A stretch of DNA of 64,000 nt from a virus (Duplodnaviria; Caudoviricetes). Both the position numbers and the translations under genes were made by a program. Numbering within the stretch: the first letter of the stretch is position 1; every line of letters starts with the position of its first letter. The notes beneath the pieces were generated by a model. The model saw nothing but the letters and a program-made list of their open reading frames with translations. It ran no database searches and had not been told where the DNA came from. The stretch is taken from positions 32,001 through 96,000 of the IMG/VR virus record IMGVR_UViG_3300028886_000037; one strand, 5' to 3'. Below, one piece after another: positions 10,184 to 38,250 of the stretch.

Positions 10184-11243
10184 GTCTCTCGCTGTATAGT
10201 CTGAGACGGTTTTGATTCATTCTCTGGTCGATAGCGCAGTTGATAGTAACTTTCATCTTCTCGCCGAGCGCATTCTGATCAAGCTGCCAGCTCCAGTCCT
10301 TGATTGCGACGATCAGGTAAGTGTCGAGAATGCCAGCGCGTAGAATGTCGAGTCTGTGAAGCGACTGATTGAACTTCTCTTTGCCGTAAGTGATTCTCTG
10401 CTTGTCGCTCCATCTTCTGACGAGCAGCTGATCTGCGAAGTCTGTAATAAATTCACCAGTCTTTTTGATGGGGTCCCAGAGATTTTCAAAGAATCCTTTA
10501 TCTTGTGTAGTAGTCTGGTCCGAGTCTTCGTCCATAAGATATCCTGCACCAGGAACATTCTTACGAATAGCATCTTTAGCTGCCTTCTCTGCTCTGTCTT
10601 GGATTTTAGCTTTGAATGAATCTAATGCGGAATCCATAATCGGACCTATCGTAGATAAACCGGCGTCTGCGCTTTTCATCATGCTTGATATTAGCTGACT
10701 CATATTTGAAGAAGTTGCTACAGTTGCATAATTTTTCAAATACGAGATGATAGATGCATAATTTGATGGGCAGCATACTGGGTCGAATATCCTAGAAGGC
10801 TCTCTCCATGCTGTAAACTCCAATTTGAAACCGTCCGGTTGAAAGGCCTTATCCATCGGATATCTGACTGAGTAGTTTCCAGCCAACTGGATATTCATAT
10901 TTGTTCCAGTAGCAGATCCGAGTGCTCCAGCTACTCCACCACGACCCGTATAGTCTCTCATCTTGTCCATCAATGCTGTTACTGGTCCAGCTTTCAAGGT
11001 AGTCTTGAAACTAATCTTTGGAATTTCGTTCAATACTCCACAGATAGCAGACGCTTTTCCGCCTTCGTTGGTAGAGAGAACAAACCAGTTGTTGCCATAG
11101 AAGTTCTCGCTGAATCCGTTGAACATTGTCTTGATGTCTTTGCCGAAGTCGATCTTGATGGCTTCGGCAGTGTTTCTCTGCTTACGGAGTTCCTCTTCTG
11201 CGGCTTCTCTCTGAGCTTCTAGTCCTTCTATTCCGTCTGCCAT
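10170..11243 (-). CDS. Hypothetical tail/baseplate-region protein (possibly gp48/gp54-like tube-cap fold)
   Basis: In an operon downstream of gp15; alternating beta-strand pattern typical of tube-fold proteins; the assignment rests on position. Confidence 0.35.
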   Translation of the reverse strand: MADGIEGLEAQREAAEEELRKQRNTAEAIKIDFGKDIKTMFNGFSENFYGNNWFVLSTNEGGKASAICGVLNEIPKISFKTTLKAGPVTALMDKMRDYTGRGGVAGALGSATGTNMNIQLAGNYSVRYPMDKAFQPDGFKLEFTAWREPSRIFDPVCCPSNYASIISYLKNYATVATSSNMSQLISSMMKSADAGLSTIGPIMDSALDSFKAKIQDRAEKAAKDAIRKNVPGAGYLMDEDSDQTTTQDKGFFENLWDPIKKTGEFITDFADQLLVRRWSDKQRITYGKEKFNQSLHRLDILRAGILDTYLIVAIKDWSWQLDQNALGEKMKVTINCAIDQRMNQNRLRLYSERPMFG

Positions 11244-27125: not shown

Positions 27126-27545
27126 TTACTTTTTGAGGAACAGGTTCTTTGTGTTGGCTAGCTGAACGCCGAGATCGTGGATAGCTGTTCCGATCTTGTT
27201 GATACGAGCGTCGAGAAGCGCATTGACCTTCTTTCTGAACTGTTCGAGAGCGTCATCACGTCCCGTGAAGTCTTCTGGAAGGATCCATTCCTTTTCGATA
27301 TAGCTTGTGAGCTCGTTCACCATGTCGTTCGAGAATCCGTCAAGAGAAGCGATAGCGTCAGCGTTGCCCTTAGAGAAGTACTGAGCGACTAGATTTCCCA
27401 TAGCGGACTTCTGCTCGACCGGGGCTGGAGTAGAAACGTTTGTGCTACTCGGATCCGGAACCTTTCCGTTGATCTCGTCCTCGAACACTTCCGGGCTGTA
27501 GTTAGCATCTTCATTGACTTTCTGTAGATACTCTTTGAATTTCAT
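27126..27545 (-). CDS. Putative internal head protein (capsid-targeting-like N-terminus)
   Basis: MKFKEYLQKVNED; TATAAATA at 27572-27579 (-). Confidence 0.5.
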   Translation of the reverse strand: MKFKEYLQKVNEDANYSPEVFEDEINGKVPDPSSTNVSTPAPVEQKSAMGNLVAQYFSKGNADAIASLDGFSNDMVNELTSYIEKEWILPEDFTGRDDALEQFRKKVNALLDARINKIGTAIHDLGVQLANTKNLFLKK

Positions 27546-27682
27546 AGGTTTTACCTCTTATATCTCTAGTTTATTTATACTCTCATGTTCAAAGAAAAAA
27601 ATCATATACTTAGCAAATTGATACGAATTTGCACTAAAAATAACAAAAAAATCAAAAATAAACACGTATAAATATAATATAG

Positions 27683-27780
27683 ATTATTGGATTGGACTGG
27701 AATCTAATAATAGGAAACGAATTTAAAAAGGCTAGGAATAGTCTTAAATCCTATTGGTACCAGTCCTACTAATAGGATTT
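27683..27780 (+). ncRNA. Structured 5' leader of tnpB: three hairpins with complementary (kissing) loops
   Basis: Stem 27683-27711 with loop GGACTGG; small stem 27728-27745 with GGAA loop; stem 27746-27780 with loop CCAGTCC. Confidence 0.65.
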
Positions 27781-27786
27781 TTTTGT

Positions 27787-28983
27787 ATGAAGAAAGGACT
27801 AGAAGTAAGGTTATACCCATCTAAGGAACAAAGAGTACTCATTGACAGAACTCTAGGTTGTTCTCGTTTTGTGTATAATCGTGTTCTAGCCTTAAAGAAA
27901 GAACTATGGGAAGACTATAAGCTATCATTCAATCCCAACCTGAAGAGTTTTAAGGAAGAATGGAAATTTCTGACGAAAGTACCAAGTCAGGCATTAGCAA
28001 ACAGTTATGTGGATTGCATGACTGCTTATAATAACTGGTTCAATTCACTAAAAGGAAAATCTAAAGCTAAACAATCATACCCAAAGTTCCATAAGAAAGG
28101 ACAGAAAGACTCCTTTAGGATTGCTGCTACAAAGACTTCTAAAGGCTATGATGTAAGGATAGAGGACTATGAACATATTAAAGTCCCAAAGTTAGGTGCA
28201 GTTAAATTCCGAAACTATAATGGAATAGACTGGTCTAAAGTTCACATCTATAACATAACGATTAAAAAGACTCCTACTAATAAGTATTTTGCTAGTCTTT
28301 GCTGTGAACTTCCAGAACCTGAATATGTAGAGCCTAAATTTAATGCTTGTGGGTTTGATCTTGGAATTAAAGACTTTGCTATCTTTGATTACGGCGAAGT
28401 AATTGAAAATCCAAAGTATTATAGAAAGACTGAATATAAGATAAAGAAAACACAAAGAGTTTTAAGCAAATGTGTAAAGTTTAGCAAGAACTACAAGAAA
28501 GTCAAGTTAAAACTCGCTAAACTACACGAAAAGATTAGGAATCAAAAAAAGAACTTTCAACACAAATGGTCAAGGAAAATAGTGAACGAAAACCAAGTCA
28601 TTGTTTCCGAAGACTTGAATGTTAAAGGCATGTTGAAGAACCATAAACTTGCAAAATCTATACAAGATGCAAGTTTTAGTTCATTCTTCAATATGATAGC
28701 ATACAAATCTAACGAACAACATAGACAGTATGTAAAGATAGGAACATTCTATCCATCGTCTAAGTTATGTCACTGTTGCGGATTCAAGTACAAAGGTCTA
28801 AAACTCGAAGAACGCTTTTGGACTTGCCCACAATGCGGAACATACTTAGACCGTGATGAGAATGCGGCAATCAATATACTAAACGAAGGTCTTAGAATTT
28901 TAAGTAGAAATACCGTAGGAAGTACGGGAAACGATAAATCGTTTAAGCCTGTTGATACTGATTTGAGTACAAACCTTGAGTAG
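27787..28983 (+). CDS. tnpB: RNA-guided endonuclease TnpB (IS200/IS605 OrfB), catalytic residues intact
   Basis: HTH RLYPSKEQ..GCSRFVYN; RuvC-I GFDLG; RuvC-II VSEDL; Zn finger CHCC/CPQC; RuvC-III DRDENAAINI. Confidence 0.95.
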   Translation: MKKGLEVRLYPSKEQRVLIDRTLGCSRFVYNRVLALKKELWEDYKLSFNPNLKSFKEEWKFLTKVPSQALANSYVDCMTAYNNWFNSLKGKSKAKQSYPKFHKKGQKDSFRIAATKTSKGYDVRIEDYEHIKVPKLGAVKFRNYNGIDWSKVHIYNITIKKTPTNKYFASLCCELPEPEYVEPKFNACGFDLGIKDFAIFDYGEVIENPKYYRKTEYKIKKTQRVLSKCVKFSKNYKKVKLKLAKLHEKIRNQKKNFQHKWSRKIVNENQVIVSEDLNVKGMLKNHKLAKSIQDASFSSFFNMIAYKSNEQHRQYVKIGTFYPSSKLCHCCGFKYKGLKLEERFWTCPQCGTYLDRDENAAINILNEGLRILSRNTVGSTGNDKSFKPVDTDLSTNLE

Positions 28984-29078
28984 GAATCAGTCATAGTTTG
29001 TAGACATTCTGTAAGCTACGCTGGAAAGTCATCTGTTTTAGCAGAGTGACTTACTTCATACTCTTACCAGCCGTCGAA
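28905..29078 (+). ncRNA. Putative omegaRNA (reRNA) scaffold plus guide
   Basis: Overlaps the tnpB 3' end (ACCGTAGGAAGTACGGGAA...), contains the subterminal hairpin, ends TTCAT; predicted guide ACTCTTACCAGCCGTCG. The 5' boundary is approximate. Confidence 0.6.
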
Positions 29079-29969
29079 CGGGTCAAACGGATCAGATTTA
29101 CGCTTCTGATTGACTATCTGCGGCGGTTCGTCTTGCGGTTCGTAGACGTGAATTCTCGTGTTGATCTGAGATTTTTGGATGATTTCTGGCTCTTTGCCTT
29201 CCGATTTTCGCTCTTTCTCAGTGTAAGGATTCACAGTGTCTTCGTTCTTCACGTAGTCATTTACCGCTAAAATGTCGTGATGCGACTCGATGTCTGCTGT
29301 TCTGTTCTCTATGTCGAAGGTCTCTGCGAGCGACGTGAACTTCTCGATCGGCATATCGTCGTCGTTCTCGTTCATCACGTCCACGTCCTCGTGATTGTTC
29401 TTCCAGATTCTCAACGTGAACGTGTAAGTGATCGGAGTTCCGAGGAATGCAGTTCCTTCTCCAAACGCCTTCACGTTGATGATCTCGTAGTACTTGTCGT
29501 TGAACTTGAAATACATCAAGTCGCCGATCTTCGGCTTATACATCTCGTACTTGATCGCAGTCCTGTCGTAGTCGTACTGGCTCGCTTCGTTGAAGTGTGC
29601 GATAGTCGCCTGGACTTCGAAGACTTCCTCGTAGAGCATACCCTGAAGCTGGTACTTCTTCTGGAGATTCGGAATCTTGTCAGTGTAGACGGATAGTCTG
29701 AATCGACGGACGATATTCTCCAACGGATCTTCGCCGAAGAGACGGTCACGCTTAGTAGAGATCTGCTTCACGTAGTAGTCGATCTCGAATCCGAACTGAT
29801 TGTAAGCTTCCGAAGTCAGAGAGCTCATCAAAGCTGCTTCGTTAGCGTAGCAGCTGTTTGGATCAGTGCCATCGAACGGAAGAGACTTGTTCCAGTCCCA
29901 ACCGCTAACGGTGCAGCCTCCTGAGCCGCCCCAGATTCTATTGAACTCTTCTTGAAAATCTGTACTCAT
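29064..29969 (-). CDS. gp14: Neck protein gp14-like
   Basis: G.EIDYYVK....DRLFGEDP, PKIGDLMYF, YYEI; C-terminal DPF; start at MSTDF (29969). Confidence 0.85.
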   Translation of the reverse strand: MSTDFQEEFNRIWGGSGGCTVSGWDWNKSLPFDGTDPNSCYANEAALMSSLTSEAYNQFGFEIDYYVKQISTKRDRLFGEDPLENIVRRFRLSVYTDKIPNLQKKYQLQGMLYEEVFEVQATIAHFNEASQYDYDRTAIKYEMYKPKIGDLMYFKFNDKYYEIINVKAFGEGTAFLGTPITYTFTLRIWKNNHEDVDVMNENDDDMPIEKFTSLAETFDIENRTADIESHHDILAVNDYVKNEDTVNPYTEKERKSEGKEPEIIQKSQINTRIHVYEPQDEPPQIVNQKRKSDPFDPFDGW

Positions 29970-38238: not shown

Positions 38239-38250
38239 TATTTATAAATA
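38239..38250. promoter_or_regulatory. Bidirectional late promoter (palindrome TATTTATAAATA)
   Basis: TATAAATA on both strands between the divergent gp6 and terminase-like genes. Confidence 0.75.

Follow-up and report, generated by a model that had tools for sequence, protein, structure and literature searches.

The window considered here (a continuous stretch of 64,000 nucleotides of phage DNA) contains a complete IS1341-type element whose TnpB is rather likely to be an RNA-guided homing nuclease working among close sister phages, a reading that draws above all on comparison of the occupied site with naturally empty alleles of the same locus. The element is, on the evidence of its domains and borders, a member by descent of the IS605 family and of IS1341 type: it has HTH, OrfB_IS605 and TNB domains without a tnpA, is inserted 3' of TTTAT, and ends on the right with a hairpin and TTCAT. 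Neither of two other groups accommodates it, as there is no resolvase and the junctions fall directly after TTTAT and TTCAT (which speaks against the IS607 group, marked by a serine-recombinase TnpA and a GG crossover core), and the catalytic triad is intact (where TldR repressors have an inactivated RuvC). The source virus record is 247,923 bp long and 98% complete, and encodes T4-like neck, tail-tube, gp23, gp46/47, UvsY-like and RecA-like genes; a gene for the late sigma factor gp55, looked for near gp46/47, was not identified. At 33.6% GC against 47.2% for the genome, the element is foreign in composition. The octamer TATAAATA, the T4 late-promoter consensus, occurs 12 times in the window, where 0.54 occurrences would be expected, and 55 times in the whole genome; at 38239-38250 of the window two late promoters stand back-to-back and overlap to form a 12-bp palindrome.

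Every motif reported in the sequence-only reading from which this work started is present where it was placed (Table 1), and the element boundaries given there agree with those obtained by comparison with empty alleles. That reading had also predicted what the locus should look like without the element, and a search of sister phages recovered such a site, TTTAT followed by a guide match of 16-20 nt, in six contigs representing five gp14 haplotypes. Four of them (L019, L020, L285 and L286) carry the predicted empty allele letter for letter, with a guide match of 20/20, and two are near-exact, L023 at 19/20 with one late mismatch and L284 at 19/20, of which 16 are contiguous, likewise with one late mismatch. 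The flanks of these contigs are 93-97% identical to those of the window, the closest empty haplotype has 98.7% gp14 identity, and as predicted they join the promoter of the 139-aa gene to the gp14 stop (TAA at 29064-29066). The predicted guide spans that stop codon and the last codons of gp14, on the opposite strand. Alleles that lack the element carry the target, which the insertion interrupts in the occupied allele, and no TTTAT-plus-guide site is present in the element's own genome. More distant phages (83% gp14 identity) are empty too, and as they mismatch the guide from position 2 onwards the reach of the nuclease would be limited to close kin.

Table 1 Features of the element and of its insertion locus, in window coordinates.
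Feature	Position	Strand	Basis or remark
139-aa phage gene, its late promoter split by the element	27126..27545	-	directly after gp14 in empty alleles
T4-type late promoter TATAAATA, flank side	27572..27579	-	seven bases flank, eighth (27579) the element's first base
Predicted TAM / left cleavage motif TTTAT	27574..27578	+	left border of 33/34 family sites
Complete IS1341-type element, 1481 bp	27579..29059	+	comparison with empty alleles
First 5 nt of left end, equal to first 5 nt of guide/target	27579..27583	+	
A-run in the position of the left guide motif; left-end hairpin, decayed	27595..27622	+	fold, alignment
Element's own late promoter TATAAATA	27667..27674	+	8/8 positions invariant in 17/17 aligned elements
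Structured leader	27683..27786	+	fold z -3.5
Leader hairpin 1, followed by a small hairpin	27683-27711	+	
Leader hairpin 3, followed by a T-run	27746-27780	+	terminator-like match
tnpB, 398 aa	27787..28983	+	Pfam PF12323/PF01385/PF07282
Predicted omega-RNA scaffold, 5' limit approximate	28910..29059	+	family alignment, folds; same stretch retained in tnpB-less mini-elements
Right-end hairpin	29026-29052	+	folds
Right cleavage motif TTCAT	29055-29059	+	
Predicted guide, flank DNA	29060..29079	+	agrees with what follows TTTAT in empty alleles
gp14-like neck / head-closure gene, intact	29064..29969	-	PF11649, phrog_679

The protein itself gives every appearance of a maintained nuclease. The D/E/D residues of RuvC, which the earlier reading had described as intact, are confirmed as D191/E275/D357, and the zinc-finger cysteines C328/C331/C347/C350 are present. 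One counterpart used for comparison was ISDra2 TnpB (PDB 8bf8, 8exa and 8h1j), which has the same domain order and the same RuvC and zinc-binding residues (E 6e-72 over 370 aa against 8bf8/8h1j); it differs in that ISDra2 has a tnpA and a TAM of TTGAT, and in that the activity shown there is predicted here. At its C-terminus tnpB terminates at a TAG where most close homologs have CAG, with the loss of about 20 residues from a tail whose coding sequence overlaps the RNA scaffold; two other members (L011 and L116) end at the same point, and this tail is poorly resolved in TnpB structures. Read-through of TAG as a cause of the short C-terminus was ruled out, TAG being the stop codon of 37 of 140 long genes. 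Estimates of dN/dS for tnpB fall in the range 0.04-0.13 (for the nearest relatives, L227/L282, 0.09-0.13 at a dS of 0.46), while the changes private to the window copy comprise 13 synonymous and 6 replacement substitutions; judged by these ratios TnpB is under purifying selection, at a dN/dS of about 0.09.

More than 120 proteins are 85-91% identical to this TnpB. Where the context of a homolog could be established, it proved to be an AT-rich contig from a large phage, in several cases with T4-like neck, terminase or RegA genes, and the close homologs in GTDB are confined to two MAGs, both with a T4-like gp23 (in one case sharing a contig with an element), which are read as mis-binned phage, a subset of such contigs having been checked. 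A set of 34 distinct family sites was assembled, 29 of them with both ends. TTTAT stands at a near-fixed distance before the A-run and hairpin of the left end at 33 of the 34, with TTCAT at the other, and right ends close with TTCAT apart from a single TTAAT; the proposal that TTTAT is the TAM is accordingly supported, insofar as comparison of left borders can support it. Under the IS608 pairing rules, AAAA/TTAT and GAAA/TCAT would be the expected guide/cleavage pairs, although this is a lead rather than a test. Identical left-end linkers are found at unrelated sites, which is a mark of Y1 transposition, so that new sites have most likely been reached with TnpA acting in trans. No Y1 TnpA is encoded anywhere in the 98%-complete genome (the earlier observation having been only that none is adjacent), nor is any serine resolvase, and among the other loci searched five candidate partner TnpAs turned up, four of them from a mixed MAG and the fifth from a viral record that is unrelated, none flanked by the family's ends.

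Many copies in the family are truncated or have no tnpB. Outside the window, the same genome carries at 10790-11017 (L025) a 228-bp omega-RNA mini-element lacking tnpB but with its own TATAAATA, inserted at a TATTTAT-A junction; a 78%-identical mini-element is found in another phage (L215/L288), and distant relatives of the 228-bp locus have no insertion, though the initial 8 nt of the predicted guide are missing from them. The smallest remnant observed (L007:1645-1695) is a 48-bp fusion of left and right ends, also at a TATTTAT-A site. In L222/L223 (2560-3005) two divergent TnpB elements lie head to head, one of them starting at a TATTTAT that belongs to the late promoter of the other, and in another phage (L011:2800-4300) a 62%-identical TnpB element adjoins the 3' end of a gp14-like gene, with a different left neighbour; this last could be either an independent insertion at a like junction or a rearranged one.

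As to the ends of the window copy, the right-end hairpin folds at -6.9 kcal/mol, but the left end, although still alignable to the family, has lost its hairpin (0.0 kcal/mol, where most relatives reach about -5 to -6, the majority of family members having kept theirs). The nearest relatives, L227/L282, inserted at another site, likewise have no left hairpin. The window copy is a family member by descent which, given this decay, can probably no longer be transposed. The late promoter that the earlier reading had assigned to tnpB is indeed there, and is invariant in all 17 aligned copies although the sequence surrounding it is variable. In some distant homologs (L044 and L046, 46% identity) TATAAATA lies between TTGACA and TATAAT upstream of tnpB, a layout from which it follows that the element's late promoter may derive from the spacer of a sigma-70 promoter.

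Between this promoter and tnpB lies a structured leader, in which hairpins 1 and 3 can pair with each other through their loops; the loop sequences vary among elements while their complementarity is kept, with a pairing of 5-7 bases in 16 of 18 parsed elements compared with 20 of 302 cross pairs. The last hairpin and its T-run resemble an intrinsic terminator and stand just before the ATG. An Rfam scan of the window gave no match to either the leader or the omega-RNA, and no paper describing a kissing-loop leader of tnpB was found, within an incomplete coverage of the literature. The leader probably tunes read-through into tnpB or its translation.

The relationship between the TAM and the late promoter requires more careful treatment, because the earlier reading had taken the late promoter to be the TAM of an element adapted to phage late expression. 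A survey of the family bears out a link between insertion sites and late promoters. Of the 34 sites, 17 read TATTTAT, and at 15 of these 17, compared with 2 of the 17 others, the promoter is followed by the start of an ORF at a distance of 11-71 nt, from which it follows that these are real promoters. Excluding the index case, TA precedes TTTAT at 16 of 33 sites and the full octamer is rebuilt at 9 of 28, where the background in the flanks is 8.6% for TA (P 2e-9) and 3.7% for the octamer if all TTTAT are considered, and 23.5% (P 0.0015) and 14.5% (P 0.015) if only intergenic TTTAT are; this enrichment, roughly twofold over intergenic TTTAT, was obtained with genes called by a simple ORF heuristic and over sites that are not phylogenetically independent. 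The left end begins with A at 27 of the 34 sites, restoring or creating the octamer. At 27572-27579 the promoter is restored in just this way, since the element's first base supplies the eighth. In L211, L225 and L281 an initial A turns a 7/8 promoter into a full TATAAATA before a leftward gene, though the left-junction flanks of these three may be chimeric.

Whether any of this reflects targeting that has actually evolved, with the element reading beyond TTTAT (for instance the preceding TA, by way of extra left-end pairing) or with its TAM tuned to the late promoter, is quite another matter, and such an adaptation seems improbable. The excess of TATTTAT over both flank backgrounds would be in keeping with it, as would the fact that all three insertions in T4-like rumen phages with empty-site data (the window element, the mini-element in its own genome and L011) lie at promoters. 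Against this, half of the sites are not promoters at all, and the excess ceases to be significant when set against the genome's own intergenic background of 38% for TA (P 0.15) and 24% for the octamer (P 0.23). Moreover, TTTAT also borders 44-47%-identical elements (hosts unclassified) in which C is the first base of the left end. For the chromosomal ISGst2 / GstTnpB2 it has been measured as the TAM (PMC10055086), for which reason it probably did not evolve to match the promoter. The claim of adaptation is therefore not upheld; the simplest reading is that the TAM is old and fits the promoter by coincidence, survival having then acted as a filter on the sites. Searches of the literature for TnpB together with late promoters, or TATAAATA together with IS elements, returned nothing relevant, although coverage was incomplete.

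The short repeat at the junctions, ATACTCT at 27577-27583 and again at 29058-29064, had been put forward as a 5-7-bp direct repeat atypical for the family and a possible sign of some other route of insertion. The repeat is real, but two of its seven bases (AT) are simply the ends that TTTAT and TTCAT share family-wide, leaving a true overlap of 5 nt. At 27 of the 29 two-ended sites linker and guide match over 0-2 nt (26 of the 28 other sites reach 2 nt or fewer, and one further site shows no excess), while the match is 5 nt in the window copy and 8 nt in a mini-element (L218), whose eight copied bases are known to be target because the corresponding empty allele (L252) shows them. Among 812 cross pairs two reach 5 nt and none reaches 8; the match in the window copy, a case picked because of that match, can thus be chance. 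A second, unrelated TnpB in the same genome (169054-170498; L294), of a family common in rumen phages, has 11 guide-identical bases that meet a hairpin remnant at a 3-nt shared stretch. The relatives of this second TnpB have a TTGAC-like TAM and conserved left ends with AA as their first bases, so that the two combined read TTGACA, the sigma-70 -35 hexamer; the copy itself has lost the 5' half of its left end, its reading frame runs on without a stop through 555 aa and into the next gene, and an empty allele was looked for but not found. Cleavage by ISDra2 TnpB is known to fall 15-21 nt from the TAM and to require a seed of about 12 bp (PMC13639567), and all the target-copied left junctions seen here, at 5, 8 and 11 nt, are shorter than such a seed. 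If trimming left fewer than 12 target bases on a broken left end, and the left end of the donor were then attached there, uncuttable junctions of just the kind seen would result, and the 5-nt repeat is probably a repair scar of this sort. The first 7-8 nt of the left end are far more variable across the family than the rest (L004 and L010 differ only there), and this variable linker may record earlier copying of target. It is very improbable that the repeat is instead a true duplication left by a non-Y1 insertion (capture at a break, or circle crossover), or that it is kept so that TnpB can bind and repress the late promoter without cutting. The IS605-type family is not expected to duplicate its targets (PMC10055086, PMC13565253), no transposase was found and three such repeats are observed, all of which might seem to invite the former, and TldR repressors do act by binding of the latter kind (PMC13565253). 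However, nearly all other two-ended sites match over 2 nt or fewer, linkers travel between sites, the repeat fills the normal linker position and adds nothing to it, 5 nt is far below seed length, and the nuclease is intact. What had been taken for another insertion route is thus better read as a later repair scar of the left junction.

Taken as a homing system, the locus would have come about as follows. The element, non-autonomous as it is, would first have inserted directly after TTTAT by Y1 peel-and-paste transposition with TnpA supplied in trans; because that TTTAT lies inside the reverse complement of a late promoter, a left end starting with A restores the promoter and spares both neighbouring genes, and survival of such sites under selection would account for their making up half of those seen. 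With the left hairpin decayed the copy would then have ceased to be transposable. TnpB and its guide RNA would be expressed from the element's own late promoter, with the leader hairpin perhaps holding that expression down, and in mixed infections would cut the TTTAT-plus-guide site present in element-free sister genomes, after which the UvsX/UvsY/gp46-47 machinery would copy the element in, or else the rival would be lost. The 5-nt repeat would be the scar of such a repair, TAM-adjacent target bases having been kept in too small a number for recutting. Non-restorative homing leads one to expect a nuclease that is maintained although its element probably cannot be excised (PMC13565253, PMC11870625), and TnpA-independent drive by TnpB has been shown in plasmids (PMC11870625; PMC13565253). 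The RecA-like, UvsY-like and gp46/47-like genes, and the lack of any TnpA in the genome, count in favour, and spread of the element by the cutting of relatives is probable on this comparative evidence. The census counts against it, since only one occupied haplotype was found (the window and L024, with identical gp14) as opposed to five empty ones, a distribution in which there is no population-level sign of a sweep, and none of the empty targets carries an escape mutation in the first 16 nt. The same census fits a passenger that jumped into a harmless TTTAT, lost its left end and is now drifting, its TnpB having been kept earlier by restorative homing in a mobile family and now doing little between phages; this account is an unlikely one, but it is the alternative to be taken most seriously. 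The premature TAG and decayed left end agree with it, as do the frequency of truncated and tnpB-less copies in the family and the terminator-like hairpin before the ATG, which could keep tnpB largely silent; and the purifying selection on tnpB could predate its arrival at the present site. What argues against a mere passenger is that reading frame, catalytic residues, promoter, leader pairing and right hairpin are all intact, only the left hairpin having decayed, and that the lost C-terminal tail is dispensed with in L011 and L116 as well and is not among the well-resolved parts of TnpB structures. Homing among close sister phages thus remains the preferred reading.

Comparison with known systems helps to place the element. 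ISGst2 of Geobacillus stearothermophilus, with GstTnpB2, is similar in its TTTAT TAM at the left end, its right-flank guide and its tnpB-only copies, in their mobilisation by TnpA in trans, most likely so here as well, and in cleavage of vacant sites, shown there and predicted here (Meers et al., PMC10055086); it differs in being chromosomal and restorative after excision, whereas the window element belongs to a lytic-type phage, has no TnpA that could be found, and combines a decayed left hairpin with a T4-type late promoter and a structured leader. The gene drive that the TnpB of IS605 exerts in plasmids (Mears et al., PMC11870625; termed non-restorative homing in PMC13565253) shares the TnpA-independent cutting of an element-free orthologous replicon, predicted in the present case, but operates on multicopy plasmids, whereas the window supplies a natural occupied/empty pair of phages. 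The free-standing and intron-borne homing endonucleases known from T-even phages (Seg, Mob, I-TevI) are alike in that a nuclease gene occupies a harmless intergenic spot from which, by way of recombination repair, it would skew inheritance when phages co-infect (PMC13565253), and unlike in that there a protein reads the DNA, where the TnpB of the window uses an RNA guide that is reprogrammed at each new site. Homing by phage TnpB has been called theoretical in a review (PMC13565253). The homing principle is known, while the phage-specific wiring (an invariant late promoter, a left end that restores promoters, a covarying leader and scars) was not found described in papers. I-TevI, for its part, is under late-promoter control and has a leader hairpin.

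It may be, though this is put forward tentatively and with less confidence than the reading of the single locus, that a TnpB clade confined to T4-like jumbo phages would constitute a late-expressed, RNA-guided homing system, with insertion that prefers and restores late promoters, control of tnpB by a covarying kissing-loop attenuator of an undescribed kind, mini-elements that borrow the nuclease, and left-junction scars shorter than the seed in which earlier homing events are recorded. TnpB homing between co-infecting phages has been proposed but not demonstrated in the papers found (PMC13565253), and a locus that offers a natural occupied allele, exact empty alleles, a TAM defined by comparison and a transposase-independent state makes the idea directly testable. 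Beyond this, the rebuilding of the promoter by the TAM and the first base of the left end gives a simple reason why such elements are tolerated in gene-dense lytic genomes, the scars suggest, in a form open to test, how short repeats could come to flank members of a family that is said not to produce them, and the conserved leader RNA may turn out to control TnpB.
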